From: an uncultured Chitinophagaceae bacterium
GTDB lineage: Bacteria; Bacteroidota; Ignavibacteria; UBA10030; UBA8401
Direction of reading: 5' to 3'
Assembly: GCA_964384415.1 (NCBI GenBank)
Contig: CAYLMV010000003.1
Location: 6,840 to 70,839 of the forward strand
Length of the DNA stretch: 64,000 nucleotides
Shown: piece after piece, positions 7,475 to 53,891 of the stretch
How the letters are laid out: every line of letters starts with the position of its first letter
How positions within the stretch are numbered: position 1 is the stretch's first letter
The notes under the pieces: model-generated
The model's database searches: none
Told to the model about the DNA's origin: nothing
Seen by the model: the letters and a program-made list of their open reading frames with translations, nothing else
Position numbers and translations under genes: made by a program

Positions 7475-8617
<1,143 letters not shown>

Positions 8618-21142: not shown

Positions 21143-21163
21143 CGCTTTACTCCGACTAATACA

Positions 21164-23645: not shown

Positions 23646-23654
23646 AGAGTTTCC

Positions 23655-25078: not shown

Positions 25079-25096
25079 ATTCCATAAAATAGGAAT
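25079..25096. promoter_or_regulatory. Palindromic motif ATTCC-ataaaata-GGAAT upstream of the porin/cytochrome operon
   Basis: Read directly, ~140 bp upstream of the porin start. A near-identical TTCC-N9-GGAAT element lies at 33038-33056. Confidence 0.35.
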
Positions 25097-25230
25097 CCCG
25101 CCTCATCAGGATGATGAAGCGGGATTGGTTGCGGTCTGGAGGCTTTGCCGAGCCTCGTGGGATAGACGCCAGCATGTAGGGTGCCGGCGGGGGAAGTATC
25201 GCTCCCGTGAGGAAGCGAATACTGTCGTTG

Positions 25231-25767: not shown

Positions 25768-26046
25768 CTTCTGTTCAATTCCTTTCGTCTCTGCAATCTG
25801 ATACTGTGTTCAAATTCTCGACACTTTGACCATCAAATAATGTGCCGAGCCGGTTTGGTAGAATACCTCTATTTTTCGTCGATTTTCAGCAAATGCAATC
25901 TCAAATCCAAGAAGAGGAATCAGGGTGGTTTTGCAAGGATGGGAACAAATTGTTGTGGTAGCATCTCTGGAGACTTCCCTTCTCAATTCAACAGGCATTA
26001 TGCCTCATGGTACCCGGTTGGCCCTTCAATGGCAGCGATGTTGCAC

Positions 26047-27525
26047 TTACTTGTTCGCATGCTGTTTTCTCTCTATCCGTCTGATCAGCAGATACAGTGA
26101 CGTTGCTAAAATGGTTATGATGATCGTCGCAACGCCTAAACCAATTCGTCTGAAGTAATACTCGTCTATGGCTGATTGACCTTCGCCTGAGACGAGCACG
26201 GCAACGGCGAGCCCCTTATGCACAACGTCGCCGAATTTCTGTTCGTTGAAAGAGTGGACCATGGTCCGCGATTGCAGCCGAGCCTGCCTCACATCACGAA
26301 GCTTGAACTTCGCCTCCGAAATTTCCATCCCCTTCTGTTCGGCTTCGTCGACAAGGTTTCGTCCTTTTAGCTCCGCATCCTTAAGGCTGTCGGCGAGCTG
26401 CCGCATGGCAAGAGCGACTTTGTAACCGAGCGAATTATCGTCCCCTTTGTGGCACTTACCACACAATGCGCCTGGAGCAACTCCGAGGAGGCTATCAGTC
26501 GCAGCGAGGATTTCATGGTTGCCGTGGCATGTTTCGCACTCAGGCAGCTTACGATCGTCGAACGCTTTCTTGTGCGGACTCGATGAGAACAGGTCCGCGT
26601 TCAATGCATGGCAGGTCCCGCATACTTTGGAAACCGACTCAACTCCCGGAGGCGCGGCTCCGTGATTTCCGTGGCAGCTGTTGCATGCGGGAGCGGAGAC
26701 ATCATTTTTCTGAAGAAGTGCAATGCCGTGTACGCTGCGGGCAAATTTGACATACTGGTCGGATGGAATTCCGTATTTCTTCATCAAATCGGAATCACTG
26801 TGGCAATGGGCGCACGTCGACGGGATGTTGGTAGGATATACTTTTGACTTCAAGTCGGCCGCCGAGCGTATATCATGACTGCCGTGGCAGCTTGCGCATT
26901 CTGCGGTATGCGCGTCACCCTTGGCATTCCGCATTCCGTGAACACTCGTCTTGTACTTATCCAGCTGGTCGACTGCAATCGAAGGGTTATAGGTCCTCAT
27001 GTATGTTGCGTTCGCATGACATTTCGTGCATGTCTTGACCACGTTGAGCGGATAGACCGGAGAGGCAGCATCTTTCACGTGAACAATCCCGTGCGCCGAG
27101 TGACAGGTGATACACTGGACAATGTGTTCTCTCCCGTTCGTTGCGAGCTTGCCGTGAACGCTCGTCTGAAGGTCTTCCCACTGGTTCGTCGGGAGCTGCG
27201 AACCGTACCGCCTCATCGCTTCCCCATCCGCATGACAGCTTGCGCACATCTTCGAAATTTCATCGCCCTTGGGAACGCCGATGAATCCTTCCTTCTTGCT
27301 CATGGCGACTTCGGCATCATCGGATTTGGAATTCCCTCCGTGACAATCTGCACACGACAATCCCTTCGCTGCATGCACATCGTGCTTGAACATTTTCGAC
27401 GGAGCATCTTCCATCGCCTCATGGCATGTCACGCACTGGTCTCCGGCGAATAGCCTCGGCTGCGATGCAATGATGATCGCCGAGATCGGAATGAGCAGAG
27501 AAAGTTGAAGTCTCATGAGGCCCAT
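26047..27525 (-). CDS. Multihaem cytochrome c (11 CxxCH) with C-terminal TM anchor; subunit of the Rieske/cyt b complex
   Basis: 11 CxxCH motifs, an N-terminal signal peptide and a C-terminal hydrophobic helix ([18 protein letters not shown]). Its start overlaps the cyt b stop. Confidence 0.8.
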
Positions 27526-28592
27526 CCGATGATGGTGAGAAGAATAATGTAGAAGACGACAAACATTCCGATGTACGTTATGAAGCGGTTCTTCTCGCCC
27601 CGCGCGCTCTTCCTGTCCCAGAACGGAACGAGCATCCAGAGGAAGCCTGCAAGTCCGAAGAGCAGGATTCCGAACACTTCGCCGTCGATGAACCCCAATT
27701 TAGCGGGGATCATTTTGAGGGATTGAAACATAAAGAGGAAGTACCACTCCGGTCGTATGCCGGCAGGAGCCGCTGCAAACGCATCAGCTTTCTTCCCCAA
27801 TTCCCAGGGGAAAAATACTGCAAGGATGGCGAGAAGATTCAGAACGATGAGCCACAGAAGCAGATCACGGAGTACGAAATTCGGAAAGAAGGGCATCGTC
27901 TTCGGCGGTACGCCAGTCTGGGTTTCGGACGATTGCGGTTCGCTCATCCCCTGTCGTTGGATGAGCAACAAATGGATTCCGAGAAGGACGGTGAAAATCC
28001 CCGGAAAGACTGCTACGTGAAATCCGAAGAACCGCGAGAGGGTTGCGCCGGTAACTTCTTCGCCGCCGCGAAGGAACATCATGATCGGTTTTCCGACCAC
28101 AGGAACAACTCCGGCGATGTCGGTGCCGACCTTCGTCGCAAAATATGCCAGCTCGTTCCACGGCAAAAGATAGCCGCTGAACCCAAATCCGAGCATCAGG
28201 AAAAACATCAGCATCCCGGTAAGCCAAGTGAGCTCGCGCGGTTTCCGGTACGACTTCTCGAAAAAAACGCTGAACATGTGAATCATCGCCGTCAGGATAA
28301 AGAGGTTGGCCGTCCAGCTGTGGATGGACCGGATCAGCCATCCAAACTGCACTTTCGACATGATGAACTGGATGCTTTCAAACGCAAACTCCTCGCTTCC
28401 TTTGTAATACATCAGCAGCATTATTCCCGTAACAACCTGGATGATGAAAAGGAAGAGCGAAACGCCGCCAAAATAATACCAAATAGAGTGGCGGTGTACC
28501 GGCACGTATTTCTTTCCCATAAACTTAACGAGGTCGTCCAGCATGACCCGTTCATTGATCCAATCGTAGAGAGCCGTTAATCTTTTCTTCAT
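27513..28592 (-). CDS. Cytochrome b (bc/b6-type, fused cyt b + subunit IV)
   Basis: 359 aa and polytopic with cyt b signatures ([25 protein letters not shown]). A 4-bp overlap with the Rieske gene stop indicates translational coupling. Confidence 0.85.
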
Positions 28593-29044
28593 GATTTTTT
28601 CGATATAAAGACATCTCCCCCTTGAACGTTGACTTTGTACTCTTCAAGCGGCCGGGGAGGCGGACCGGAAACGTTCCTGCCGTTGAAATCGTACTTCCCG
28701 TTGTGACAGGCGCACCAGATCAGCCCGTAGTCTTTGCGGTATTGTACCGTACAATCGAGGTGTGTGCATGTTGCCGAGAATGCTCTCAGCTCATCCTTCG
28801 CGGTGCGCAGAAGAATCACCGGTTTCGTTCCAAACTTGATGATCGTTCCGCTGTCCTTGGGGATGTCGGTCAGCTTGCCGGCCTTCACGCTGGAAACTTC
28901 GGCTTCTGCCTGGGTCGGCGGCTTCAGGTATGCGAGAACGGGATAAAGGATGGCGCCAATCCAGGCCAGGAGACTTCCGCCGAGGACGAACTTCAGGAAA
29001 TCTCTCTTATTCTGTTTCAGGTCAACAGGAGGATGTTCGGTCAT
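28589..29044 (-). CDS. Rieske [2Fe-2S] iron-sulfur protein
   Basis: CTHLDC...CACHNG Rieske boxes and an N-terminal TM/Tat-like anchor. Confidence 0.85.
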
Positions 29045-29080
29045 GTCCCAGCCGCAATAATGATGGGAGTTCGTGAAGGA

Positions 29081-30565
29081 TCAGGAACCGCTGTGGCAAT
29101 CGCTGCAATTCATCTGCTTCCACGCATCGCCGACGTCGACAGGGTGCTTGTACTCGATGCCGGTGAGAGATATTCTAAGGCTGTCTTTCTCGAGCTTCTG
29201 AGCAAGAATCACGTGGCAGGTATTGCAGTCTCTCGACAGGACTTTCCCGTCGTCGCCGACATGCTTGCCGTCGTGACAGCGAAAACATCCCGCAGAATAC
29301 AAGTGACCGATGTTGTTCGGATAATGTTTCCACGAAACATTCATCTCGGGGAAGAAATTCTCGCCGTAGATTCGTTTCACGTGTTCGATGGCTGTATCAA
29401 TGCCGGCCGCCATCGTGCGGGAAATCTCGGGATAGCGCTGCGCGTAGAAATCGCGGATGGTGAAGCCGATGCTGTCCATCGCCCCCGCTTCTGTACCGTA
29501 CGGCCTCGTCAGCGCGTCGACGGCCGTCGCCTTGATGGAAGGAAGTGCGGGATCAATCCAACCCAGCGTCATTGCCTGGTTCACCGATTCGTTTGGCGGA
29601 TGATAGATGTGCGTCGGCCGGTTGTGGCAGTCGATGCAATCCATCCGCCGTTTTTCGCCTGCGGCGATCTGTGCGTCGGTCGCAGAGCCGTCGTTCATCG
29701 TATAGGTCACAACAGTCCCGTCGGGCCGCTTCGACTGGACCCACGGAATCACCTGGCGCTGCGAATCAATCGCAACGTAGGTGATTTTGTTGCTGATGTT
29801 CATGTGCCAATGAATGCCGGAGGTCGGACCCGTCTCGCTGTTTCCTCCGCCGATCTTCATCAGGAGCGAAATCCACCATTGAGTATTCTTTTCATCGGAA
29901 AGGAAATAGTTCTTGACCACCTGTTTTTCCGAATAAAATTGTTTCGGCCAGTGGCATCGTTCACAGGTCTCCTGAGCCGGACGAAGGTTTCGTACCGGCG
30001 TTTCGATGGGACGCGAATACTTATGGAAGATCACCGAATAGACCTGATATGCTCCGGACAATTTCGATTTGACGTACCAGTCGGCACCGGAGCCGACGTG
30101 ACATTCAGCGCAAGAGACTCTCGCATGGGGAGAGTAAAGATAAGCGGTGTATTCGGGCTTCATAACGCTGTGACAAACCTCGCCGCAGAACTGAACCGAC
30201 TCCGTGAATTCATACGCTTGATAGCTTCCAAACGCGGAACACATGAGGAGCACCAGGACAAGAGATCCGAAAAAGAGGAACATCGACCGCTGATGCGGGT
30301 CGTTAAGATCGATGCGGGGAAATCGGTTCGCCGTCGTTTGAACCCGTCTCCGCTCGAGAATGACGCCGACAATAGCGATCGCCAATCCCATAAGAAGAAA
30401 GCCGGGAAGAATGACGAAAGCTATGATTCCCATGTACGGGCTTTGGCGTCCGGCGAAGGCTTCCAGGAGAAAGAGGAACAGGATCAGCCCAAAGCTGACG
30501 AGCGCAATTCCTGCGCCGGCAAAACTCGTAGGGTTAAAAAAAGATTTTGGAACAAGCCTTTTCAT
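29081..30565 (-). CDS. Inner-membrane NapC/NirT-type multihaem cytochrome (7 CxxCH, 3 N-terminal TM helices; ImcH-like architecture)
   Basis: 494 aa with three hydrophobic helices in the first ~110 aa and then 7 CxxCH motifs. It lies 36 bp upstream of the Rieske gene. Confidence 0.7.
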   Translation of the reverse strand: MKRLVPKSFFNPTSFAGAGIALVSFGLILFLFLLEAFAGRQSPYMGIIAFVILPGFLLMGLAIAIVGVILERRRVQTTANRFPRIDLNDPHQRSMFLFFGSLVLVLLMCSAFGSYQAYEFTESVQFCGEVCHSVMKPEYTAYLYSPHARVSCAECHVGSGADWYVKSKLSGAYQVYSVIFHKYSRPIETPVRNLRPAQETCERCHWPKQFYSEKQVVKNYFLSDEKNTQWWISLLMKIGGGNSETGPTSGIHWHMNISNKITYVAIDSQRQVIPWVQSKRPDGTVVTYTMNDGSATDAQIAAGEKRRMDCIDCHNRPTHIYHPPNESVNQAMTLGWIDPALPSIKATAVDALTRPYGTEAGAMDSIGFTIRDFYAQRYPEISRTMAAGIDTAIEHVKRIYGENFFPEMNVSWKHYPNNIGHLYSAGCFRCHDGKHVGDDGKVLSRDCNTCHVILAQKLEKDSLRISLTGIEYKHPVDVGDAWKQMNCSDCHSGS

Positions 30566-30642
30566 CTGTGCTGGATATTACCGTTAATGCAACAGAGATG
30601 CAACGGGAATTAAGAAGTGAGAGTTAGGAATTATGAAACAGG

Positions 30643-30718
30643 GTTGTTGTCAGTTGTCAGTTGTCAGTTGTTAGTTTTTGGTTGTTGGTTGTTCATTGTT
30701 GATTGTTCATTGTTGATC
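30643..30718. repeat. Tandem repeat tract: (GTTGTCA)x3-4, GGTTGTT x2 and a 14-bp direct duplication GTTCATTGTTGAT(T/C) overlapping the CbcL-like stop codon
   Basis: Read directly: gttgtcagttgtcagttgtcagttgttagtttttggttgttggttgttcattgttgattgttcattgttgatcc. Confidence 0.7.
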
Positions 30719-32881
30719 CTTCTGCGTCGACCGGTCCCGATTAATGTCTTCCATCAACTTTCGCACTTCCTCCGCCTTGATCCGCTGCAATTCCAGCGGG
30801 TGTTCGTCGTGCATTTCTTCCTCTGTGATCGTCCCTTTGAAGAAGGCAAGGTTGATCGGATACACATCCGGATTGAAAATCACAAAATAGAAGTGCCATA
30901 TAATAATAGAGAGCGTCGCGAGCCAGGCTTCATAATAATGGACGGTGCCTGCAACATCCCACCAGAGCTTGCCTATAATTCCAAGAAATCTGTTGTCAAA
31001 CCAGAGAATGAAGCCCGTCGCTCCCATCACGATCGTCCCCCACACCAGCGCCCAGTACTCGCTCTTCTCCACATAGCTGAACCGGTCGAACTGCGGTCTG
31101 ACCTTGCTCAATCCGATATTGTACTTCGCAACTGCGATGGCGTCGTGAAGGTCTTTCAATTTCGGCAGTAAGTCATGGACGAGCTGTTTTCCCCTGGGGA
31201 CAAACAGCACATAATAGATGTGGTAAAGACCCGCCGCGATCAGGACCAGGCCGGCGGCGCGATGAAGGAGGCTTCGAATGCCGAATACCGCGGGGCTGAG
31301 CGAGCGGATCGGGCCGACCCACCACGCATCCGGGAACTTCAGCATGAAGCCTGTTATCACGAGCGTCGTGAAGCTGATGATCAACGTGCCATGTTGCAGC
31401 CGTTCGCTCAACGTCATCCGGACATACAGTGAATGGCCGAGTTCTTCTTCATAGAGCGTTCCCCGGCGTACTCGCAGCTTCCTTTTGGATTTCTTTACGA
31501 AGTCCAGGGCATTGTGAATGAACATTCCGCCGATCGTGATGACGATGAGGAGGATATATCCGGATGTTACATAATAGAGCATATCGTTGTCTTTGGCTGA
31601 GACGATGATATGCACCGAGCCCTTCGTGAAATTCTCGTTCGCTCCCGGGTGACATTTTCCGCATGTCACTGCAAGGTTGGCCTTATTCACCCTCGATTTG
31701 GGATTGCTCGACGGCAGGATATCATGGATCCCGTGACAACTCGCGCAGTTGGCGACTTCCACGCTTCCGGCTTTCGTCGCAAGACCGTGATAGCTATCGT
31801 CAAAACTTTTTCCGCGCTCCGCTGCAAGGCCGAATTTTTCGTTCAGCCGCACCGAGTTGTGGCACGGCGAACAGACCTGGGCAGATACATGAAGCCTTGA
31901 AACGGGCGAGTTCGGGTCCTTGGGCGCGAGAATCTTGTGCTCTCCGTGGCAATCGGTGCACACGGGCGCGTCTTTATTGCCGGCGAAGAACGCAGAGCCG
32001 TGAATGCTTCCTCTGTATTCCGTTGCAATCGAAGCATGACATTTCGCGCATGTGTTGGGAATATTCAGCCTGTTCACCCGCGATGTCGGGTCTCCCCCCT
32101 TCTTCATCTCGTGGCTCCCGTGGCAATCGACGCAATTGGCCGCTCTTCCATTCCCGCCCTTCAGGGCAACGCCGTGCACGCTTTGTTCATACGACAGGAC
32201 GAAGCTCGCTGTGGGGGCATCGGCCGGCGTCTGTTTGTTCTTCACATGACAGGTGATGCATACCTGCTCCTGCGCGATCTTCAGCTGCGCGGAATCGGTC
32301 CCCGCTTTGACTGCGGTGATATTCTTGGAATGGCAGGCAACGCATGTCGGGGCGTTGAGGTTTCCGGCGAAAAGAGATTTTCCATGAGCCGACGTCAGGT
32401 ATTTCTCTTTCTCAGCCGTGTGGCATTGGCCGCAGCTCTGCACAACGTTTGAAGAATTGAATTTTGTGCCGGGCGTTTTCGGGGACTGGACGTCGTGTTT
32501 TCCGTGACACTCCTTGCACATCTGGCTCTCGTTCCTGCCCGCCTGCAGAAGCAGCGTACTATGGAATGGATGCTTCGGTTCTACATTCTTATGGCATGTT
32601 TCGCACTGGACGGGAGTGATATGTTCCTTGTGCGGCACATTCCCGGGATCAAAACCCGTGTGGCAGGCGACGCAGACCAGTTTCTTGTGCGTCGAATGAC
32701 TCAGAACTTCATCGTTCACGAACAATGAAACAGTCTTTCCGTTGCGCTCGGTAGACAATGTGCTGTCGGAGTGGCAGGCTAAACACTCTTCTTTCGTCTG
32801 CGATCTCAGCAGCGAGGACGAAGCAAGGAGTAGGAGAAAGAGAATCAGAGATTGGAAGAAAAGAGTTCGGGTCTTAAGCAT
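30707..32881 (-). CDS. Fusion of a multihaem cytochrome c (13 CxxCH) with a C-terminal dihaem cytochrome b-type membrane domain (CbcL-like)
   Basis: 724 aa. A signal peptide is followed by 13 CxxCH motifs. The C-terminal ~270 aa has 5 TM helices with conserved His in TM1, TM2, TM3 and TM5, an FdnI/HydC-like arrangement. Confidence 0.75.
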   Translation of the reverse strand: MLKTRTLFFQSLILFLLLLASSSLLRSQTKEECLACHSDSTLSTERNGKTVSLFVNDEVLSHSTHKKLVCVACHTGFDPGNVPHKEHITPVQCETCHKNVEPKHPFHSTLLLQAGRNESQMCKECHGKHDVQSPKTPGTKFNSSNVVQSCGQCHTAEKEKYLTSAHGKSLFAGNLNAPTCVACHSKNITAVKAGTDSAQLKIAQEQVCITCHVKNKQTPADAPTASFVLSYEQSVHGVALKGGNGRAANCVDCHGSHEMKKGGDPTSRVNRLNIPNTCAKCHASIATEYRGSIHGSAFFAGNKDAPVCTDCHGEHKILAPKDPNSPVSRLHVSAQVCSPCHNSVRLNEKFGLAAERGKSFDDSYHGLATKAGSVEVANCASCHGIHDILPSSNPKSRVNKANLAVTCGKCHPGANENFTKGSVHIIVSAKDNDMLYYVTSGYILLIVITIGGMFIHNALDFVKKSKRKLRVRRGTLYEEELGHSLYVRMTLSERLQHGTLIISFTTLVITGFMLKFPDAWWVGPIRSLSPAVFGIRSLLHRAAGLVLIAAGLYHIYYVLFVPRGKQLVHDLLPKLKDLHDAIAVAKYNIGLSKVRPQFDRFSYVEKSEYWALVWGTIVMGATGFILWFDNRFLGIIGKLWWDVAGTVHYYEAWLATLSIIIWHFYFVIFNPDVYPINLAFFKGTITEEEMHDEHPLELQRIKAEEVRKLMEDINRDRSTQKDQQ

Positions 32882-35706: not shown

Positions 35707-36144
35707 TCAGTTCTTCGGCAGCGAAGTCGCTCCATTCCCTTTCCGATTTTTTTGCAGGCCAATCTCAAGAGCAATGGCCTCGAGGATTTGTTCTATCTGA
35801 ACCGGTTTGTACAAAACCTGGTTCGCCAGAGAGCGGATCTTTGTTTCCCACTCCGGCTTTCCCTGACGATACGCATAGAGGACGATGATAGGGGCATCCG
35901 AATTCTGCATGCGCCTGAATTCAAACTCTCCCAGAAGAGAGGGGATCGACCGTTCAAGGTCGACGACAAGAAGCGAGACACATTTATTGTCCCGCTGAAG
36001 TCCGAGATCCTCGACGGTCTCAGTCGTCACAACTTTGTACTGATTCTGCAGCAAGATCGATAAGCTCTTCGACAAATCCGCATCTGCCGAGTGAACCAGA
36101 ATCGTCTCTTTTTTGTTTGTCCCAGTCACTTTGTTCCGCTTCAA
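35707..36144 (-). CDS. Atypical receiver-domain protein (HSADAD in place of the DDE acidic pocket)
   Basis: 145 aa. LLVVDLE and KP receiver-like elements are present, but the N-terminal acidic motif is degenerate. Confidence 0.45.
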   Translation of the reverse strand: MKRNKVTGTNKKETILVHSADADLSKSLSILLQNQYKVVTTETVEDLGLQRDNKCVSLLVVDLERSIPSLLGEFEFRRMQNSDAPIIVLYAYRQGKPEWETKIRSLANQVLYKPVQIEQILEAIALEIGLQKNRKGNGATSLPKN

Positions 36145-36709: not shown

Positions 36710-37933
36710 TCAGAACTTCGTCCATGAGAGAGTCCGAATAGTTACGCTCTCCCCTTTTTCAATCCGCTCTTTATTTTCTGAAAGTATAATGAGGCAGTTT
36801 GCTGCGGCGAGCCCCCCAACCATGTGCGAGCCCTGGCCGCTCACCGGCTTGACGCTGAAATGACCATCCGGCAATCGCGTTGCGACGGCCCGGACAAACT
36901 CTACTCTTCCGGGACTCCTCCGGAATTCCGATTCCATCAGCGCAAGATAATTCAATACCGCGCCGCGCGGGAGTCCCATTATTTTTTGGAGAGCCGGCAT
37001 CACCAGCACTTCAAGAGATACAAGCGCCGAAACCGGGTTGCCAGGCAATCCAAAGACCAGTTTGTTCCCCCGAGTTCCAAAATAGTTGGGCTTGCCGGGC
37101 TTCATCGCCACTCTCCAGAAGACGGTTTCCACGCGCAAATCGTTCAGCACCTCTTTGACAAAATCAAAATCTCCTACGGAAACTCCCCCGGCAGAAATGA
37201 CAACGTCTGCTTTTTTGATTGCCCGGGCGAAAGCCTTTGAGAGATCTTCCTTCCTATCGCGGACGTGCATTACCAGCGCTGGGTCAATTCCGATTGAACG
37301 CAGGATTGAGGATATAGAGAACGAATTCGAATCCCGAATCTCCCCCCGGCGGAGGCGGCGCGACGGAGACCGGACTTCATTCCCCGTGATAACCAGCGCT
37401 ACTGAAGGCTTCCGATACACTTTCACATCTTCATACCCGAGGGTTGCCATTAATCCAATTACCGGCGGCGTTATGACCGTCCCTTTTGAAAGAACACTCT
37501 CGCCCTTATAAAACTCCTCGCCCCGCTTTCGGAGATTCGCCCCTTCCATGGCCGCCGATTTGAAGATGATCTCTTTGCCTCTCACCTTCACGAGTTCCTT
37601 CATGACCACCGCGTCTGTTCCTCTTGGAAGAGGGGCGCCCGTCATGATTTTCATCGTCTGCAGGGGCTTCAACGTGCGGGGAGCGCTGCTTCCGGCAGCG
37701 ATCGTCAATGCAACCGGGAGCCTGACCTGATTCTGTTCCGAGGCATTCCTGAGATCACGAACTCGAACCGCGTATCCGTCAACCGATGATGAGTCGAACA
37801 GCGGGATTGCTTCGCGCGCCTTGATCTCCTGAGCGAGAGCGTATCCGAGCGAATCGCCGATTGACAACTTCACAGGCATTGAGCGACGCGAGTGTTTTAA
37901 TATCTTTTCTAAGGCTTCTCCGAATTCCAACAC
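36710..37933 (-). CDS. moeA: Molybdopterin molybdotransferase
   Basis: 407 aa with the MoeA domain order and a GGVSVGDFD motif. Confidence 0.85.
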   Translation of the reverse strand: MLEFGEALEKILKHSRRSMPVKLSIGDSLGYALAQEIKAREAIPLFDSSSVDGYAVRVRDLRNASEQNQVRLPVALTIAAGSSAPRTLKPLQTMKIMTGAPLPRGTDAVVMKELVKVRGKEIIFKSAAMEGANLRKRGEEFYKGESVLSKGTVITPPVIGLMATLGYEDVKVYRKPSVALVITGNEVRSPSRRLRRGEIRDSNSFSISSILRSIGIDPALVMHVRDRKEDLSKAFARAIKKADVVISAGGVSVGDFDFVKEVLNDLRVETVFWRVAMKPGKPNYFGTRGNKLVFGLPGNPVSALVSLEVLVMPALQKIMGLPRGAVLNYLALMESEFRRSPGRVEFVRAVATRLPDGHFSVKPVSGQGSHMVGGLAAANCLIILSENKERIEKGESVTIRTLSWTKF

Positions 37934-38096: not shown

Positions 38097-38534
38097 TCAA
38101 CAATTGACCCCTTTGCCGGAGGACTCTTCCACATGGTCATTTATTGCCAGCCAGAAACATCCCGCTGAGAAGATCATATCGCGAATAATGGCTGCGGCGC
38201 CAACCTTCTCCGGAAACCACGTTCCAAAACATCCGCAATTCGCATTCTGATTGCGCAGAGCAAGAATAAGCAAGGCAATGGTGAACGTGCATGTCATCAT
38301 GCCTAAAAAAAACGCCATGAGGCTCGTCCGGAATTTGACGATCAGTGAAAGGCCGAAGAAAACCTCAGCTCCAATAATCCCAATCGCGGCTGGCACGAGA
38401 AAAGGAGCCGGCACCATCTCGAATTTGTTGAGGTCGTCAAGAAACACATAGAACTCCAGGGCCTTGAGGCAACCAGCTGCCAGGTAAGCCGCCCCCAGAA
38501 ACAAACGCAATGTATCGGCAAAGAAGGATTTCAT
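38097..38534 (-). CDS. MauE/DoxX-family redox-associated membrane protein
   Basis: Four TM helices and a conserved NCGCFG motif. The start is set at MKSFFADTL, the internal Met of a longer ORF. Confidence 0.55.
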   Translation of the reverse strand: MKSFFADTLRLFLGAAYLAAGCLKALEFYVFLDDLNKFEMVPAPFLVPAAIGIIGAEVFFGLSLIVKFRTSLMAFFLGMMTCTFTIALLILALRNQNANCGCFGTWFPEKVGAAAIIRDMIFSAGCFWLAINDHVEESSGKGVNC

Positions 38535-38590
38535 AGATCGAGCTGAATTCTCCTCCCAATTCCTTAACAAGTTGATTTGCTCCTGGAGGC

Positions 38591-39298
38591 TTAACCATAA
38601 AGAGAAAGCTTGAGGAACTGAGTGATTGACTCTTGAATAGCCGACACGAATATCCAATCAAAGAAAGCCACGAGTACCCTGGCGGAGAATCTGAGGGAAG
38701 AAAACGTGCCTGCCCCTATGGCCACCATGCCTATAAACCACGCCGCAAAGATATCTGCTTTTTCTAGAATCTGGAATACCGGCAAGTGAGCCAATGCAAG
38801 CAGATTATTTAAGTTCAGAAAAGTCACAACCGAAAAATTTGTCCCTCTTACCATGCAGACAATGCAACCGAGGACCACCGCCGAGACACCCTCCAACAAG
38901 ACAATGAAGTAAGAATAGACAACCACGGAGAGACATTGTCTATAGAGAAGCTCCGAGCGGCTTCCCGAAAGGACGGCGACATAATAAAGAAAAAGTGCAC
39001 CAGCGCCGAATCTTACACTCAACAGGGCTGCCACGAGTACAATGCTCCCCATCGTAATTTCCGCGGTAAGAGTTGAATGCTTCATCCAGAGGCAGAATAG
39101 GACAACGGTTGCCTGGGCCATCGAAACGCACGTCGCTGCCCGGAGAAAAACAGGCTGCCTCAATCGCCGTTCGAAGAACTTTCGAGGCCGAAGAATTAGC
39201 TCACAGACCTCCTGCAAAATCATCGGGGTCCCTCCACAATCCAGGAAAATCAGAGGTACAATAAGAATGTGAATCTCCATTGATCCAAGAGAATGCAC
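38591..39298 (-). CDS. Hypothetical polytopic membrane protein
   Basis: 235-aa ORF with ~6 hydrophobic helices, co-oriented within the peptide locus. The start is uncertain. Confidence 0.4.
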   Translation of the reverse strand: MHSLGSMEIHILIVPLIFLDCGGTPMILQEVCELILRPRKFFERRLRQPVFLRAATCVSMAQATVVLFCLWMKHSTLTAEITMGSIVLVAALLSVRFGAGALFLYYVAVLSGSRSELLYRQCLSVVVYSYFIVLLEGVSAVVLGCIVCMVRGTNFSVVTFLNLNNLLALAHLPVFQILEKADIFAAWFIGMVAIGAGTFSSLRFSARVLVAFFDWIFVSAIQESITQFLKLSLYG

Positions 39299-39343
39299 AG
39301 CCTCCCAACTTCCTTGATGCTCACCAAATGCATCGCCCTCAGT

Positions 39344-39877
39344 TCACTCCTCGGCGCTCTTTGGCATGAAGGTGAAGCTTAGCATGGAGATGGAACTCAT
39401 CTCCAACATCTGAACTGAGGTAGTCTTAAATGACCATATGCTCGTTCTTCCCATAAAAGGAATCGACTTCTCTTTCTCTGCTTTCCCGAGCCGGTCTGAG
39501 TACTTTTGGCGAAATCGTTCGATCTTATCATCGTCTTTCTGAAGTTGTTTGGTCACTGTGTCAATCGACATAGTGGTAACGATAACTGACTTGAGCAAAC
39601 TGTCCGCCTTGGCAAATTGAAGAGCAACAAGTACTCTTTGAGCATACATTGTATCGAGATAGTACTCGGTGAAATTGCCGCCTCCTCCAGATGGAAACGC
39701 ATGACCATCTGCATTCATCTGCTTAAGCTCTTTTGTGTGGAGTTTGGCACTTACGTCAACAAACTTCATTCCCCAGGATAGTTGCTCAAATGAAAAGAGC
39801 GGATCCTTTAACAATTGTGCGCTCGCCGGACTAAGAATAAGGAACAAGATCGACAAGATCTTCGCGAAAGGCTTCAT
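39344..39877 (-). CDS. Hypothetical secreted protein
   Basis: 177 aa from MKPFAKILSILFLILSPASAQ (a signal peptide). No catalytic motif. Confidence 0.45.
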   Translation of the reverse strand: MKPFAKILSILFLILSPASAQLLKDPLFSFEQLSWGMKFVDVSAKLHTKELKQMNADGHAFPSGGGGNFTEYYLDTMYAQRVLVALQFAKADSLLKSVIVTTMSIDTVTKQLQKDDDKIERFRQKYSDRLGKAEKEKSIPFMGRTSIWSFKTTSVQMLEMSSISMLSFTFMPKSAEE

Positions 39878-39988
39878 CGGGGTGTTCTCCGTTTGATGAA
39901 AGATTCTGTTTTCTTTTCTCACGCGCACTTTCTAAAACAGGAACATCGACCAGATTTTTCCAGGGGAGTGTATTATTATCCACTAAAC

Positions 39989-40021
39989 ATCCTCTGGGTC
40001 AGTTGACCCAACCCAGAGGAT
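39989..40021 (-). terminator. Strong hairpin (11-bp perfect stem) immediately downstream of the precursor-peptide gene; candidate attenuator/terminator
   Basis: ATCCTCTGGGT-cagttgaccca-ACCCAGAGGAT read directly. It lies ~20 nt after the peptide stop, with no clear U-run. Confidence 0.5.
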
Positions 40022-40041
40022 ATTTGGCAAGTATTCCAGAA

Positions 40042-40302
40042 CTAAAGGATCTGGCCGATGACGCATCCGACATAGATAATTGCATAGGTGACTGAACAGA
40101 CTGTCGTCCCCGCTCCGGTCAACAGACAAAAGAATTGTGCCAAGGATGCAGCCGCTCCGCAATCGACAGCTACCCTCCCGCCCGTGATCAGCCGCATCTC
40201 ATTTTGCGTGAGAGGCGATGAAGCGGTCGAGACGGGAAGGAGCGGTAGGATGAGAGTGATCAGGAGCATGCACACCAGCAGCTGTTTCAGGATCTTTTTC
40301 AT
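40042..40302 (-). CDS. Candidate RiPP/bacteriocin-like precursor peptide with double-glycine leader and 4-Cys hydrophobic core
   Basis: MKKILKQLLVCMLLITLILPLLPVSTASSPLTQNEMRLITGG|RVAVDCGAAASLAQFFCLLTGAGTTVCSVTYAIIYVGCVIGQIL. LTQNEMRLITGG fits the LSxxELxxIxGG leader consensus. A C39 peptidase gene lies directly upstream. Confidence 0.6.
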   Translation of the reverse strand: MKKILKQLLVCMLLITLILPLLPVSTASSPLTQNEMRLITGGRVAVDCGAAASLAQFFCLLTGAGTTVCSVTYAIIYVGCVIGQIL

Positions 40303-40450
40303 ATTGCCCCCATTAATTGAATGTGTGATGGTTGATTTTTTCCTGCTCACCGCGGGCTGTTTGCTGCGATCGGGATCGGGAGAGGTGCCTCGACGCCCGA
40401 GTCGAAGAACCATTCCTTCACCCAAACCCATCAAACCGGCGAGCAAGTTG

Positions 40451-40957
40451 TTATTTCTTGCAGAAAACCAGCGCCTCGCCATGCCAAATCCTGGCGAGAC
40501 TCTTTTCCGATAGCTTCAGCCGCCCAATCGCCGGATCGCGCAGGTAGACTTCCCCTTCGTGAACGCTGTCCGCAACGGCAAAATGATCGTTGTGAACGAA
40601 GAGGATCGCCGGGAATTGGTTTCTTCTGAATTCTTCCATAGTCAGCTTCAAGCCCTTCGCACTCAACCCGTTCCGTTCCGCATGATGAAGCAACTCCAGC
40701 ATCGTCGTGCCGTTCCCCGTCATCTCGATCGAACGTTCGATCTCCCTCTGGCCAGCTTCAATTCCGAAGGCATCATACACCATCGCCAGGGAAGCCGGCC
40801 CGCAGTTGTTTTCTCTGGATTGGAATCGAACGCCGTCACTTCCCAGATATTCTCCCCCATATTCCCAGGCCAGATATCTATGAAGACAAGAAGGGTAAAC
40901 TAGAAACACGATGATAAGAGAGAGAAGACCGATGCCCCATGACAATTTCATTTCCAT
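40451..40957 (-). CDS. Standalone peptidase C39 (bacteriocin-processing) domain protein with N-terminal TM anchor
   Basis: 168 aa. The Q...NNCGPASLAMV motif supplies the catalytic Cys, and the NDHFAVAD His and DP Asp motifs are present. No fused ABC transporter domain. Confidence 0.7.
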   Translation of the reverse strand: MEMKLSWGIGLLSLIIVFLVYPSCLHRYLAWEYGGEYLGSDGVRFQSRENNCGPASLAMVYDAFGIEAGQREIERSIEMTGNGTTMLELLHHAERNGLSAKGLKLTMEEFRRNQFPAILFVHNDHFAVADSVHEGEVYLRDPAIGRLKLSEKSLARIWHGEALVFCKK

Positions 40958-40998
40958 TCCCCCTTAACTATCTAGAGGCCACCCAAGGCTAAAGTGCT

Positions 40999-41529
40999 CT
41001 ATTGAGTGCCTGCAAACCCTGCGATCAGCAGCGAGTCCTTCTGGAAGGTGTTCTCCCCGGTGGATCGTTGGCGAAGCACACCATCTTCGTCTATACAATA
41101 GAGCGACGGGACTGCCGCGACCTTGAAGCTCTTCGCTAATTCGATACTGTTTCCTGCAAGAACTGGAAAAGATGGGGTGATACTTCCTTTCCTTCCGGTT
41201 GAGTCCGCAGAGCCGTCTATACAAACGCCGACGACGTCGAGCGTATTCGAAAAGATTTTATAAACGGAGTCGCAATTGACGATCTCAGTCCGGCAGTGAG
41301 AACAGGCCGGACTGTAAAAAAGGATGAGAAGTTTCCTGGTGCGGGGGGAATCGAAGGCGAACCTCCTTCCATCAGCGAAGGCCGCCGCAAACGGAGGCAT
41401 CCTCTCACCGATCGCGGGCGCACCGGCGTTCCGATGATATTCGATATAGAACGACGATGCGATCGGAAATGCGCAAAGAATTGCTAGCGAGATCGCTGCA
41501 AGCGATCTATGTTTGGACCGAGAGATCAT
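40999..41529 (-). CDS. TlpA-like thiol:disulfide oxidoreductase (thioredoxin fold, CxxC)
   Basis: N-terminal anchor, an ILFYSPACSHC motif and a redoxin-like domain of ~150 aa. Confidence 0.7.
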   Translation of the reverse strand: MISRSKHRSLAAISLAILCAFPIASSFYIEYHRNAGAPAIGERMPPFAAAFADGRRFAFDSPRTRKLLILFYSPACSHCRTEIVNCDSVYKIFSNTLDVVGVCIDGSADSTGRKGSITPSFPVLAGNSIELAKSFKVAAVPSLYCIDEDGVLRQRSTGENTFQKDSLLIAGFAGTQ

Positions 41530-41567: not shown

Positions 41568-41701
41568 CCCCTTATCACACTGGCATGTTCAGATTGGATA
41601 GTTTCTACACTCAAAGATAGCGGAAGAGCACGGAGTTGTCAAGAAGATTCTAAAAAAATGTGAATTGCGGAGAAGCACTAAAAAATTTCCGGAACTTTTG
41701 A

Positions 41702-42610
41702 TCAGTGTCCTTCGCCCTTCAACATCTTGAACGCGTGAAGCAGCGTCGGGAAGAGCGCGTCGAGTCCGTCGGTCACCGCGCCTTTCGATCCGGGAAAACT
41801 TACGATAATTGTTTTTCCACGGATTCCGGAGATGCTTCGGGAGAGCATCGCAAGAGGAGTTCGCGCTTGCCCGTACGAACGCACCGCTTCTGTTACTCCC
41901 GGAATTTCCCGCTCGACAATTATCCTAATCGCCTCGGGGGTATGGTCGCGGGGCCCGAAGCCGGTCCCCCCGGTGGTGAGAATAAGATCAAGGTGGAGAG
42001 AGTCCGCAAAATGAATCAGCCTCTCTTCGATTTGTTTCACGTCGTCGGGGATAACTTCGTACGCTGCCACTTCAATTTTGTAATCTTGTAATCTTGCAAC
42101 GATCATCTTCCCCGACACGTCTTCCTTTTTTCCGCCCGCAACAGAATCCGACAGCACAAGGACTGCGGCGCGAAGGTGTTGTCCGTCCAGCTGTGCGAAA
42201 TCGGACTTGCCCCCTTTCTTGCTGAGGAGTTTTACTCCGAGGATTTCCATCTCATCGTCAAGCATTTTCATCATGTCGTACAACGTCAATGCGGCGACCG
42301 ACGCCCCCGTGAGCGCCTCCATCTCCACGCCCGTTTTGTAGATTGCCTTCACCTCAACCTTAGTCGTAATCTCATCTTTCCCGATTTGAAAATCTACTCC
42401 GACAAAGTCGACCGGCAGCGGATGGCAATACGGAATAATCTGGCTCGTGTTCTTCGCCGCTTGTATCGCGGCGACCTTCGCCACCGGGAGAGGATCCCCT
42501 TTGGGGATCTTGTTCTCGCGGATGAGTGCGATCGTTGCCGGAGAGACGCGTAAAATAGATTGAGCGACTGCAGTGCGAAGCGTTGTTATTTTTCGTGAGA
42601 TGTCACGCAT
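41702..42610 (-). CDS. moaC: Bifunctional molybdenum cofactor biosynthesis protein MoaC/MoaB(MogA)
   Basis: 302 aa with an N-terminal MoaC domain and a C-terminal MogA/MoaB domain (GGTGF). Confidence 0.8.
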   Translation of the reverse strand: MRDISRKITTLRTAVAQSILRVSPATIALIRENKIPKGDPLPVAKVAAIQAAKNTSQIIPYCHPLPVDFVGVDFQIGKDEITTKVEVKAIYKTGVEMEALTGASVAALTLYDMMKMLDDEMEILGVKLLSKKGGKSDFAQLDGQHLRAAVLVLSDSVAGGKKEDVSGKMIVARLQDYKIEVAAYEVIPDDVKQIEERLIHFADSLHLDLILTTGGTGFGPRDHTPEAIRIIVEREIPGVTEAVRSYGQARTPLAMLSRSISGIRGKTIIVSFPGSKGAVTDGLDALFPTLLHAFKMLKGEGH

Positions 42611-51953: not shown

Positions 51954-53879
51954 TTATTGACTAACGTTCAGCGATATCACGACCAACGGATTCGTCGACA
52001 AGTCCTGCGTCTTGTTCTGCGACACGGATCCTGACGTGGCCCGGAATTGAAGATTTGCGGGGAGCAGTTCCTTGGTGATATTTCCGTTCACGGTATTTCC
52101 AAATTGCCTCCACGCGCCGGAATAGTAGGTTACGATGGCATTATTCACCGGACTATTTTGGGTATTTACCACGTTCACGGTTGCCAAGACCGTTTGAAAA
52201 GCCACAACGCTGTTCGAATTCAGGTCTTGCTGCTTGTCGTTACTCACATAGGCATAGGTCATCCGGAAGGAGTAATTATTCGGCAGCAACTCTTTGTTAG
52301 AAATGCCGTTTGAAGCAACGCCAAAGGTTCTCCATGCGCCCGAGTAATATTGAACAGAGCCCTGATCGATGAAAGCTCCGAGACTGTTTTTCAGTTGAAC
52401 TGTTGCTTTTACAGTGCTGAACACGACCGTCGCATTTGATCCTAAGTTCTGCTGTTTATCATTGCTGGCGTAAGCATACGTCATTCTGAAGGAATAATTA
52501 TTCGGCAGAAGCTCCTTTGTGGCAGTTCCGTTCAACGTAATCCCAAACGTTCGCCATGCGCCGGAGTAATACTGAACTGTGCCGGTATCCATTAACACGC
52601 CCTGACTATTGTGCAATTGCACGGTTGAATTCACGGTCTGGAATTCCACAACAGGATTGACGCTCAGATCCTGAGCTTTGTCATTGCTTCCATAGGCATA
52701 CGTCATTCTGAAAGAATAATTGACAGGCAACAATTCCATCGATGCCACGCCATTTGAAGTTGTCCCGAAAGACCTCCATGCTCCGGCATAATACTGAACC
52801 GAACCGGTATCCATTGCAATACTTTGACTATTCTGGAGTTTAACCTGCGCCGCGACTGTTTGGAAAACAACGGTGTCGGTTCCTACGGTCACGTTTGATT
52901 TTGTCTGTGCGCCGTAGGCATAAGTCATTCGCAGGCTGACGGTCTTGAGAGTTGTGTTGACGCTGAATGTGCCGTCGTTGTTGTTCACTGCGTCTTTCCA
53001 GCTACCATCATAATATTGAAGCGAACCGCCGGTGAGTTTTGTGCCGAGGCTGCTGACAAGCTTGACGGTGAACCCTGACGGAGGAATCGGCAACTGGGCC
53101 AATAAATATTGAGTGTTGTAATAAATGAGCGCATACGCTTCGCTGGTGAGATTGCTTGAACTGTCTGAGATTGCGTTGATCAAGACTGTTTGAAGAGTTG
53201 TGCGAGCTCCCGATATATCATTCTGTTGTAAGTTTGACTTGGCCGAGTTCAAAGAATTAAGATATCTATTTGCAGTGGTTTGATTTTTGATCCATCCCAA
53301 CAAAGCGGACTGTGCAACGTAGGAAGAAATTGTATCGAGAAAGCTCAATGCTGCAAATGGATGGGGCGGTGTTGCAGGTCCGATGGTTGTCCTGCAAAGG
53401 TGAGTTGCAAAGATATTAAATGATGCTGGATCGTATTGTCCTTCTTCGCTGGGGATTCGTTCGAATGCTCGGACCCAATACCGCAAAATCTTTGGTAAGC
53501 CAGCACTCTTCATTCCAAATCCAGTTAGAGATCTATTTGGAAGAATATAGTGAGTTGACAAATATGAGTCCCAAGTTACAACTTCAATTGTGTCGTAATC
53601 GTATTTACCAGCATTCCAATTTTGCGGGGCAGTGAAAGAGTCGACAGAATCTCGTAGTTCAATCATAAATCTCCAAATGCTCTGAGATGCATTTATCCCA
53701 TTGGCTAATCCATAATTATAGCTGTATCCTCTTTGTTGGACGAGAACGTTGGCGGTCACATTTGGAGCAATAAGATTCTTTACCGGGAGTGGTGGTAGAT
53801 TCTGAGCTTGTGAAAGCCCTTGCACAGAACACAGGACCTTCAACAGTAAAATTATGGACCATACTAAGTTATTTTTCAT
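51954..53879 (-). CDS. Secreted protein with five tandem ~75-aa repeats (YY(S/A)GAWR(T/S)FG...NYSFRMTYAY...)
   Basis: The repeats can be read directly in the 641-aa translation, and a signal peptide is present. Confidence 0.55.
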   Translation of the reverse strand: MKNNLVWSIILLLKVLCSVQGLSQAQNLPPLPVKNLIAPNVTANVLVQQRGYSYNYGLANGINASQSIWRFMIELRDSVDSFTAPQNWNAGKYDYDTIEVVTWDSYLSTHYILPNRSLTGFGMKSAGLPKILRYWVRAFERIPSEEGQYDPASFNIFATHLCRTTIGPATPPHPFAALSFLDTISSYVAQSALLGWIKNQTTANRYLNSLNSAKSNLQQNDISGARTTLQTVLINAISDSSSNLTSEAYALIYYNTQYLLAQLPIPPSGFTVKLVSSLGTKLTGGSLQYYDGSWKDAVNNNDGTFSVNTTLKTVSLRMTYAYGAQTKSNVTVGTDTVVFQTVAAQVKLQNSQSIAMDTGSVQYYAGAWRSFGTTSNGVASMELLPVNYSFRMTYAYGSNDKAQDLSVNPVVEFQTVNSTVQLHNSQGVLMDTGTVQYYSGAWRTFGITLNGTATKELLPNNYSFRMTYAYASNDKQQNLGSNATVVFSTVKATVQLKNSLGAFIDQGSVQYYSGAWRTFGVASNGISNKELLPNNYSFRMTYAYVSNDKQQDLNSNSVVAFQTVLATVNVVNTQNSPVNNAIVTYYSGAWRQFGNTVNGNITKELLPANLQFRATSGSVSQNKTQDLSTNPLVVISLNVSQ

Positions 53880-53891
53880 GTTGAGGCCTTT

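Follow-up and report, generated by a model that had tools for sequence, protein, structure and literature searches.

We analyzed a stretch of 64,000 nucleotides (hereafter the window) from the genome of an uncultured bacterium assigned to the Chitinophagaceae in GenBank and to the Ignavibacteria in GTDB (contig CAYLMV010000003.1), and focus here on a compact gene cassette for which we discuss a role in the production and maturation of a small peptide. The cassette consists of six co-oriented genes on the minus strand (38097-41529), which are separated by short gaps or overlap slightly (Table 1). In the direction of transcription, the genes encode a thioredoxin-fold oxidoreductase, a standalone C39 peptidase, a peptide of 86 amino acids (aa), a secreted protein, a Yip1/YknW-like membrane protein and a MauE-family membrane protein. 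A first-pass annotation of the window had listed six such genes, including a C39 peptidase that lacks the usual fusion to an ATP-binding cassette (ABC) transporter, and all of these were confirmed. The arrangement is not a chance neighborhood, as the same gene order was found in more than 35 loci from five phyla.

Table 1. Genes of the peptide cassette, parts of the peptide gene and predicted regulatory features, with positions in the 64,000-nucleotide window (aa, amino acids; ORF, open reading frame; TM, transmembrane segments).
Feature	Description	Position	Strand	Basis
Gene 1	Thioredoxin-fold oxidoreductase, 176 aa	40999-41529	-	AhpC-TSA and Redoxin matches
Gene 2	Standalone C39 peptidase, 168 aa	40451-40957	-	PF03412
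Gene 3	86-aa peptide	40042-40302	-	Signal peptide, double-glycine leader and four-Cys core
Peptide residues 1-27	Sec-type signal peptide (MKKILKQ, hydrophobic stretch, VSTA/SS)	40222..40302	-	Read from sequence
Peptide residues 28-42	Double-glycine propeptide SSPLTQNEMRLITGG	40177..40221	-	Leader consensus
Peptide residues 43-86 and stop codon	44-aa core, neutral, very hydrophobic	40042..40176	-	
Gene 4	Secreted protein, 177 aa, signal peptide, conserved SWGM motif	39344-39877	-	No family match
Gene 5	Yip1/YknW-like membrane protein, 210 aa from MILQ, ~5 TM	38591-39223 (ORF open to 39298)	-	
Gene 6	MauE-family membrane protein, 145 aa from MKSF	38097-38534 (ORF open to 38657)	-	PF07291
Candidate operon promoter	TTGACA, 17 nucleotides, TATCTT, upstream of the thioredoxin gene	41612..41642	-	Consensus scan, prediction
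Stem-loop	Strong, GC-rich, directly 3' of the peptide gene	39980..40030	-	Folding energy

The C39 protein matches PF03412 with an E-value of 1.4e-28 (99.8 bits, cut-off 22). An alignment of 21 homologues shows no variation at Gln46, Cys52, His125 and Asp141, the counterparts of the oxyanion Gln and of the Cys/His/Asp catalytic residues in double-glycine peptidases. Among solved structures, the nearest are LahT150 (6mpz, 1.4e-9), PCAT1 (4ry2) and ComA, which align in register over these positions. The first-pass annotation had stated that its proposal would fall if the catalytic Cys and His were missing; both are in place. The protein is composed of one N-terminal signal-anchor (residues 9-25) and the C39 domain only, and thus differs from the peptidase-containing ABC transporters (PCATs), in which C39 is fused to the ABC transmembrane and ATPase domains in a protein of about 700 aa. 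A search of the full library recovered 3765 relatives up to an E-value of 1e-3, of which 383 remain at a limit of 1e-10. Nearly all of the best 150 library representatives are 160-235 aa long, and the protein therefore belongs to a sizeable family of standalone, anchored C39 peptidases and is not a fragment of an ABC transporter. Many other standalone C39 open reading frames (ORFs; about 155-220 aa) were also encountered in metagenome-assembled genomes (MAGs) of the Patescibacteria (candidate phyla radiation) and the DPANN archaea (L031-L080, L090-L160), with no thioredoxin, Yip1 or MauE among their neighbors.

The C39 catalytic domain is predicted to face the periplasm. The double-glycine site is located downstream of a signal peptide, and since a cut in the cytoplasm would discard the export signal, cleavage should follow translocation. 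Furthermore, the C39 homologues carry three to four Lys/Arg residues in a short tail ahead of the single transmembrane helix, which would leave the N-terminus inside and the catalytic domain outside. The strongest argument for a periplasmic location is provided by five independent natural fusions among the library representatives, in which an AhpC/TSA-type thioredoxin is followed by C39. The thioredoxin active site is CPHC or CSHC in three of the five, no transmembrane segment separates the two domains, and the three fusions with a complete N-terminus start with a single transmembrane anchor, so that both domains should reside on the same side of the membrane and be functionally coupled. Anchored thioredoxins of the TlpA/ResA type are periplasmic proteins. 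There is also a precedent for an active periplasmic C39 peptidase, namely FapD (PMC5557850), in a study that described this class of C39 peptidases as uncharacterized and the FapD substrate as unknown (PMC5557850).

We also considered the possibility that C39 is cytoplasmic, in which case the hydrophobic stretch of the peptide would be the membrane-targeting part of a long leader, cleaved at the inner face of the membrane and followed by export through an unlinked transporter. All characterized bacteriocin C39 domains are indeed cytoplasmic, and the C39 protein in the window shows little charge bias around its transmembrane segment. However, the homologues show a clear positive-inside bias with a cytoplasmic N-terminus, and the fusions to an anchored TlpA-type thioredoxin, in which a second transmembrane segment is lacking, put C39 on the classically periplasmic side. 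Moreover, no PCAT or other exporter was found in the locus or in the 64-kb window, in agreement with the first-pass annotation, which had seen no ABC export gene, and the adjoining genes encode secreted or periplasm-facing proteins. We consider a cytoplasmic C39 very unlikely.

The putative substrate of the peptidase is the 86-aa product of gene 3, which consists, in order, of MKKILKQLLVCMLLITLILPLLPVSTA (signal part), SSPLTQNEMRLITGG (double-glycine propeptide) and RVAVDCGAAASLAQFFCLLTGAGTTVCSVTYAIIYVGCVIGQIL (core), and thus carries ...LTQNEMRLITGG ahead of a hydrophobic core with four Cys. These features were recognized in the first-pass annotation, to which we add, as a correction, the Sec signal peptide, with a hydrophobic stretch that has a hydropathy of 2.8-3.3. 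The leader in the window has L-12, E-8, M-7, I-4, G-2 and G-1, as in canonical double-glycine leaders. The same architecture of a signal peptide, a double-glycine leader and a hydrophobic core is present in all 29 curated homologous peptides from five phyla, in which the leader consensus was counted as L/M/I at position -12 (25/29), E/D at -8 (18/29), M/L at -7 (23/29), I/V/A/L at -4 (22/29), G at -2 (26/29) and G/A/S at -1 (29/29). The signal part of these small ORFs consistently shows a positively charged N-terminus, a hydrophobic stretch and a cleavage site of small residues. Whereas a classical leader forms the N-terminus of the precursor, is 15-30 aa long and is not accompanied by a Sec signal, a signal peptide of ~27 aa precedes the leader here, both in the window and in the 29 relatives. 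The export route, which the first-pass annotation had thought to be unconventional, would at the inner membrane simply be Sec, by means of this signal peptide.

A metagenome contig that is 99.3% identical in DNA encodes an identical peptide, and a comparison to the orthologue in L162 by the Nei-Gojobori method yielded a synonymous divergence (dS) of 1.06 and a nonsynonymous divergence (dN) of 0.074, with a dN/dS ratio of 0.07. In this comparison, the proportion of nonsynonymous differences (pN) was 0.027 for the signal and leader together, below the 0.118 of the core, and independent gene callers place a gene of 86-87 aa at this position. Judged by these substitution patterns, the ORF is a real gene under strong purifying selection, which settles the question of conservation raised in the first-pass annotation. 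Two other readings of the gene were rejected: an ORF extended upstream to 146 aa, because the extension is neither open nor conserved in more distant loci, and a lipoprotein signal, because conservation is lacking for the Cys within the hydrophobic stretch. The peptide has no Pfam match, and its NCBIfam matches are weak, unrelated and far below the cut-offs. Likewise, no NCBIfam or Pfam family was found above its cut-off for ten related peptides, and the leaders of the relatives match TIGR03949 and TIGR04149 only below the thresholds. A match of related peptides to "JUQZ-1/BLB8" was dismissed, since it covers the signal-peptide region only and concerns an unrelated Brevibacillus bacteriocin.

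One hypothesis, already raised in the first-pass annotation, is that the locus is a generic operon for thiol redox maintenance or cytochrome maturation in which the small ORF is incidental. In line with this, the thioredoxin is TlpA/ResA-like, CcmF and multiheme cytochrome genes are located 6-20 kb away in the window, and the flanking genes are involved in molybdenum cofactor synthesis. However, the small ORF is under strong purifying selection, and every close C39 homologue for which downstream DNA is available adjoins a gene for a peptide with a signal peptide and a double-glycine leader, across phyla in which the flanking genes are unrelated. A C39 peptidase is not known to have a role in cytochrome maturation, and the redox genes are absent where the peptide has no Cys. 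The generic operon is in our opinion an extremely improbable explanation.

Across the aligned seven-sequence family of the peptide, the invariant residues include MRLITGG, all four Cys and the Asp that precedes the first of them. In the core, the Cys residues occupy positions 6, 17, 27 and 38, with a spacing of eleven residues on either arm, and the resulting C-x10-C-x9-C-x10-C framework is common to the window, L001, L161, L162 and L164. A model by AlphaFold2, based on the seven-sequence alignment, contains a helix in the signal peptide, a short leader helix at residues 33-40 and, in the core, a helix at residues 48-61, a turn and a helix at residues 66-85, with a predicted local distance difference test score (pLDDT) of about 81 for the core. 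The core is thus predicted to form a helix-turn-helix hairpin, and because the pairs fit the predicted hairpin geometry, it is probably held together by two inter-helix disulfides, C6-C38 and C17-C27 in core numbering. Among the 29 peptides, the leaders are conserved, whereas both the length of the core (21-53 aa) and its Cys pattern are hypervariable. In most other cores, the first Cys is located at positions 2-8 and the last near the C-terminus, so that these cores may follow the same stapled-hairpin principle. The product would be a class II-like peptide modified by disulfides only, and not a ribosomally synthesized and post-translationally modified peptide (RiPP) in the strict sense; of the first-pass label "RiPP/bacteriocin-like" we hence keep the second half but not the first.

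The first and the last gene of the cassette encode a putative redox pair. The thioredoxin has an N-terminal transmembrane segment (residues 9-25), a TlpA/AhpC-TSA scaffold and the active site CSHC, consistent with the TlpA-like CxxC oxidoreductase of the first-pass annotation. The Pfam matches are to AhpC-TSA (1e-11) and Redoxin (2.4e-8), and the NCBIfam matches are weak for ResA and well below the cut-off of 189 for MauD (3.4e-5, 23 bits). CxHC is present in 15 of 18 thioredoxins of the Bacteroidota type, eight of which have CPHC, and the Acidobacteriota have CGNC. CPHC is the motif of DsbA and CGHC that of PDI, and oxidizing potentials are associated with a His in the position preceding the second Cys. 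The MauE protein matches PF07291 at 8e-18 (65.4 bits, cut-off 27) and DoxX at 6.5e-5. It contains the motif NCGCFG, in which the CGC columns hold the only Cys conserved in 10 homologues, located in a loop between the last two hydrophobic stretches that we read by eye as periplasmic. MauE is the last cassette gene in loci of the Bacteroidota type. The first-pass annotation had assigned two MauE/DoxX proteins to the cassette, an assignment that stands for gene 6 but not for gene 5, which appears to be Yip1/YknW-like.

Every locus with a Cys-containing core for which upstream DNA is present has a thioredoxin gene immediately upstream of C39. In two loci in which the core is free of Cys (L005 and L010, core ILPWALVGW...), neither a thioredoxin nor MauE was found within 12 kb in any reading frame, and both loci keep C39 and Yip1. 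Because the redox genes are absent where the core has no Cys, the redox pair is more likely to serve the peptide than the protease.

An alternative explanation is that thioredoxin and MauE do not fold the peptide but keep the catalytic Cys of C39 reduced, much like DsbG/DsbC act against sulfenylation. A cysteine protease would need protection in an oxidizing compartment, the thioredoxin gene is always positioned directly upstream of C39 and is sometimes fused to it, and a scaffold of the TlpA/ResA/AhpC type is typically that of a reductant. Yet L005 and L010 have C39 but no thioredoxin or MauE, and their cores are Cys-free. In addition, the C-x-H-C motif, often CPHC, is typical of oxidases and isomerases, and the Cys-containing cores hold their Cys positions strictly. 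We find it quite unlikely that protection of the protease takes the place of peptide folding; the two roles could coexist.

The distribution of the cassette was determined from C39-profile scans of species-representative genomes and metagenomes, complemented with the contigs of individual homologues. Since naive ORF calls were noisy in the high-GC loci of the Acidobacteriota, hidden Markov model (HMM) matches in six-frame translations and a signal-peptide filter were used for these. The general gene order is thioredoxin, C39, one or more small ORFs and a Yip1-like gene, and in the loci of the Bacteroidota type, a secreted protein of about 180 aa precedes Yip1 and MauE follows it. The hosts are MAGs of the Bacteroidota, Ignavibacteriota and Acidobacteriota (Thermoanaerobaculia, "Multivorans"), and a reduced, redox-free cassette is present in one MAG of the Latescibacterota and one of the Poribacteria. 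The Acidobacteriota have three to four peptide genes in tandem.

In the lineage of the window, the cassette interrupts a string of molybdenum cofactor genes, with a moaC-mog fusion upstream (window 41702-42610) and moeA downstream (window 36710-37933), and this placement is kept in L002, L004, L008, L161, L163 and L164 despite their differing peptide cores. In comparisons of the window to L164, L161, L002, L008 and L004, the sequence identity is 73-83% for the flanking MoaC-Mog (not found in L002) and 61-66% for the flanking MoeA, as compared to 31-44% for the thioredoxin, 50-59% for C39 and 32-43% for MauE. The Yip1-like protein (35-44%) and the secreted protein (about 50%) could be compared to L164 and L161 only and were undetectable in L002, L008 and L004. 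The cassette thus diverges much faster than its moaC/moeA flanks. In L002, L004 and L008, an unrelated core with five to six Cys has taken the place of the peptide core at the same chromosomal site, and the signal and leader sequences still align. In other phyla, the cassettes have unrelated flanks. Taken together, the fast evolution, the replacement of cores and the tandem arrays would be expected of a locus involved in antagonism.

A few variants of the cassette were observed in addition. In the Acidobacteriota loci L012-L024 (L014:6448-6774, L015:6568-6888), the first gene after C39 encodes a secreted peptide of another kind. It carries a signal peptide and a tail rich in Pro and Cys (PIPGCPFPIPWP...CxCP), the junction ELAVY(S/W)PCGC is conserved, and a double-glycine motif is lacking; this gene precedes two to three double-glycine-leader hairpin peptides. 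In a MAG of the Nitrosomonadaceae (L046:1-4200), the copy looks degraded: about 86-113 aa are left of C39, the single small secreted peptide (1822-2037, 8 Cys) has a signal peptide but no double-glycine leader, and MauE is fused to a long C-terminal extension. This locus may represent a natural case in which C39 was lost together with the double-glycine leader. Upstream of the cassette in L001 (3811-4515) and L011 (4353-5069), from MAGs of the Bacteroidota and Ignavibacteriae, lies a homologous gene of 234-238 aa that resembles an S-adenosylmethionine-dependent methyltransferase by eye, and an AraC-type regulator is located upstream in L001 (by eye) and in L167 and one further contig (Pfam HTH_18). 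These methyltransferase-like and AraC-type genes may be accessory or regulatory parts of the system.

The two remaining genes are candidates for accessory functions. The secreted protein has only seven close homologues and is distantly related to the equivalent gene of the L002 type (hhalign 71%, E 3.6e-5). The window and L001 share their core framework, and the secreted protein of one is detectable in the other at 31% identity, whereas the window and L002 share neither, even though their C39 proteins are slightly closer. The secreted protein thus appears to follow the type of peptide core rather than the C39 tree, and is a candidate for a periplasmic immunity or handling protein.

The Yip1-like product of gene 5 has no Pfam match in the window itself and matches the NCBIfam family YknW at 4.5e-5 (23 bits, cut-off 110), but its positional homologues exceed the Pfam Yip1 cut-off of 28.6 in L002 (6.9e-11, 42.8 bits), L005 (8.8e-16, 58.7 bits) and L015 (1.7e-8, 35 bits). 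The homologue in L161 falls just under the cut-off (4.7e-6), the one in L164 also has a Yip1 match, and an iterated HMM joins the window protein and its positional homologues at 1e-33. In L005, a CPBP/Rce1-like intramembrane protease (PF02517 at 7e-12; 7126-7965) is encoded between the peptide and Yip1, with an equivalent in L010. Proteases of this family are often linked to bacteriocin immunity. Furthermore, an ABC ATPase and membrane proteins are encoded alongside Yip1 in L003, L007 and L167, and L167 adds a YknX-type fusion protein to this set. In Bacillus, YknW assembles the YknXYZ pump, which protects the cell from the SDP peptide toxin (PMC4887032). We consider the Yip1-like protein to be a candidate immunity or efflux accessory, and the statement in the first-pass annotation that no immunity gene is evident is probably wrong, the Yip1-like and the secreted proteins being the candidates. 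A large glycosyltransferase-like gene is located upstream of the redox-free cassette in L005 and L010.

The operon also has candidate regulatory features. The candidate promoter runs on to TATCTTTG and is compatible with TAnnTTTG, which is the -7 promoter motif of the Bacteroidota. The stem-loop after the peptide gene has a central stem of 18 bp and a folding energy of -30.4 kcal/mol (z = -5.6), and none of 200 shuffled sequences folded as well. Hairpins of differing sequence are found at the equivalent position in L162, L161, L001, L002, L008 and L004. The hairpin in the window, which has no clear U-tract, is a candidate attenuator or terminator within the operon, and a hairpin after the structural gene is an arrangement common in peptide operons.

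Outside the cassette, an ORF of 145 aa at 35707-36144 has no Pfam match at 1e-4, is always located just past moeA and shows 67-75% identity to its counterparts in L002, L004, L008, L161 and L164. The segment at 51954-58688 contains three large co-oriented ORFs (641, 920 and 606 aa) with no Pfam match at 1e-5 and has the lowest GC content of the window (0.456-0.465 vs. about 0.52-0.53 elsewhere). A CcmF-type cytochrome c assembly gene and several multiheme cytochrome genes are present at 18911-32881, of which the gene at 30707-32881 combines c7/c3-type heme domains with a cytochrome b561-like membrane domain; a similar fusion flanks the cassette in L164. Scans of the whole window for Rfam families and tRNAs gave no matches.

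We hypothesize that these components act in sequence. The 86-aa prepropeptide would be exported through Sec by means of its N-terminal signal peptide. In the periplasm, the catalytic domain of the C39 protein, anchored in the inner membrane, would recognize the amphipathic double-glycine propeptide and cut after Gly42 to release the 44-aa core. The membrane-anchored thioredoxin, through CSHC, would oxidize the four Cys to two helix-to-helix disulfides, and MauE may re-oxidize the thioredoxin through its CGC motif, in the role of a partner of the DsbB/VKOR type. The hairpin after the peptide gene would probably yield more transcript of the peptide than of the downstream genes. Finally, the secreted 177-aa protein and the Yip1-like protein would most likely protect the producer or pass the peptide on, which is the weakest step of the model. 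Periplasmic leader removal followed by oxidative folding had been suggested in the first-pass annotation, and is now supported by the topology, the thioredoxin-C39 fusions and the CxHC motif.

We think it rather probable that the cassette produces a small, disulfide-stapled hydrophobic peptide and matures it outside the cytoplasm through Sec, a periplasmic C39 peptidase and a thioredoxin/MauE pair, with accessory protection. Our confidence is higher for the processing steps than for a function as a toxin, and the mature peptide is most likely membrane-active, antagonistic and bacteriocin-like, as judged from the gene content and the evolutionary pattern. Several observations weigh against this interpretation. 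All functions, including cleavage, disulfides, localization and activity, have been assigned from the sequences, with signal peptides and topology judged by hydropathy and charge rules alone, and the C39 protein in the window has a weak charge bias of its own, with one Lys before the transmembrane segment. The core is neutral and not cationic, and the overall pLDDT scores are low for the secreted protein and the whole prepropeptide (62 and 66, respectively), and the immunity-like fold match is no more than suggestive. Thioredoxins with a TlpA/AhpC-type scaffold are usually reductive. MauE was not found within 6 kb of the Acidobacteriota loci or in L009, so that a MauE partner is not obligatory, and the link between a Cys-free core and missing redox genes is based on two related loci, effectively a single evolutionary event. 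The locus also contains no component for export across the outer membrane.

An alternative hypothesis is that the maturation is as outlined above but that the product is not a toxin, and instead serves as an envelope component or signal. It could be a subunit or primer of a surface fiber or amyloid, by analogy with the systems of the periplasmic C39 peptidases FapD and FilB, or a membrane-resident regulator or pheromone. The sole characterized periplasmic C39 peptidase, FapD, serves in amyloid secretion, and the C39 protein has weak NCBIfam matches below the thresholds to FapD (1.2e-8) and FilB (9.7e-7), but these scores are far below the family cut-offs, and no barrel or usher gene of the Fap or Fil type is located nearby. 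Many cores are Gly/Ala-rich and neutral, the locus has neither an outer-membrane exporter nor a proven immunity gene, and its chromosomal position between moaC and moeA is stable in one lineage. On the other hand, an envelope role fits poorly with hypervariable cores that are swapped at one site while leaders and flanks are conserved, with tandem arrays of peptide genes and with the bacteriocin-associated CPBP, ABC and YknX/Yip1 genes in the relatives. We regard a product of this kind as unlikely and favor the interpretation of an antagonistic peptide.

In textbook accounts, a double-glycine leader marks a peptide for cleavage in the cytoplasm, coupled to export by an ABC transporter. If our interpretation is true, the cassette would represent the first extracytoplasmic C39 family with identifiable double-glycine-leader substrates, and the leader and its protease would form a portable module that is independent of transport. 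Hundreds of orphan C39 proteins of 160-235 aa in metagenomes would gain a likely substrate, and a whole class of peptide loci in poorly cultured phyla of soils and sediments would escape mining tools that depend on a PCAT or a short N-terminal leader. The loci would then constitute a new reservoir of disulfide-stapled, helical-hairpin antimicrobial peptides in the Bacteroidota, Ignavibacteriota, Acidobacteriota, Latescibacterota and Poribacteria, the thioredoxin/MauE pair would be a tractable private system for oxidative folding, and a testable function would be at hand for MauE-family proteins beyond methylamine metabolism. Whether this amounts to a widespread new route in diderm bacteria, in which prepropeptides cross the membrane by Sec and their double-glycine propeptide is then cut by an anchored, extracytoplasmic C39 family with a private disulfide system, is in our judgment evenly balanced.

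No description of this arrangement was found in the open-access literature on C39 together with MauE, VKOR or Yip1 and on periplasmic or standalone C39 peptidases, and neither a Bacteroidales RiPP-mining paper nor a 2025 microcin survey mentions it. The closest described system is the bacteroidetocin cluster (class IIf, Bacteroidales), which encodes, besides a four-Cys peptide with a double-glycine leader of 15-16 aa, a protein with five transmembrane segments, a C39-bearing ABC transporter and a thiol oxidoreductase (Coyne et al., 2019, PMC6671954). We compared the two by the published description. Both are found in the same phylum and combine a double-glycine leader and four Cys with a C39 domain, a dedicated thiol oxidoreductase, thought to form the disulfides, and a five-transmembrane protein of unknown role, and both lack a classical immunity gene (PMC6671954). 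However, the bacteroidetocin leader has no signal peptide, whereas the leader of the cassette is bipartite with a Sec signal, and the bacteroidetocin C39 domain forms the N-terminal part of an ABC exporter (PCAT), whereas the C39 protein of the cassette is a signal-anchored protein of 168 aa with no ABC part. The cassette also splits the oxidoreductase function between thioredoxin and MauE and adds a secreted protein. Thus, analogues of three of the four bacteroidetocin components are present and the ABC transporter is absent. Since there is neither a PCAT nor a leader at the N-terminus of the precursor, we therefore do not file the cassette as a bacteroidetocin or a classical class II system.

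Individual parts of the cassette resemble other systems. With the PCATs (PCAT1, ComA, LahT, CvaB), it shares the C39 fold, the Gln/Cys/His/Asp set and the leader consensus of L-12, E-8, L/M-7, I-4 and GG, but cleavage in the PCATs is cytoplasmic and coupled to ATP-driven export, whereas the peptidase of the cassette is uncoupled and predicted to act after Sec. The class II microcins and class IIb bacteriocins likewise have hydrophobic, Gly-rich cores with a disulfide. In the maturation of methylamine dehydrogenase, a periplasmic thioredoxin-like protein, MauD, and the membrane protein MauE serve a small, exported, disulfide-rich polypeptide. The cassette similarly pairs a thioredoxin with MauE for what is predicted to be a small, exported, disulfide-rich product, but it contains no mau genes or enzyme with a tryptophan tryptophylquinone (TTQ) cofactor, and its substrate is a peptide with a double-glycine leader. 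Pseudomonas FapD, from the Fap amyloid system, is likewise a C39 cysteine peptidase, active in the periplasm on Sec-exported material (PMC5557850). However, it is soluble with a cleaved signal peptide, its substrate has no canonical double-glycine leader, and its operon serves amyloid secretion and encodes an outer-membrane barrel; the C39 protein of the cassette scores 34.5 bits against the NCBIfam FapD cut-off of 330. SdpC of Bacillus subtilis provides a parallel for the product, as a Sec-exported precursor that is matured after export to SDP, a disulfide-containing, membrane-active toxin of 42 aa. Resistance to SDP involves the Yip1-family protein YknW with an ABC pump and YknX (PMC4887032), and relatives of the cassette have Yip1 beside an ABC ATPase and a YknX-like protein. 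However, SDP is matured by SdpA/SdpB and signal peptidases with no C39 or double-glycine leader, and of the resistance genes the window has the Yip1-like one alone, with those for an ABC pump and a fusion protein absent. Overall, the cassette appears to work like a bacteroidetocin or classical class II system in which the processing has been shifted to the periplasm.

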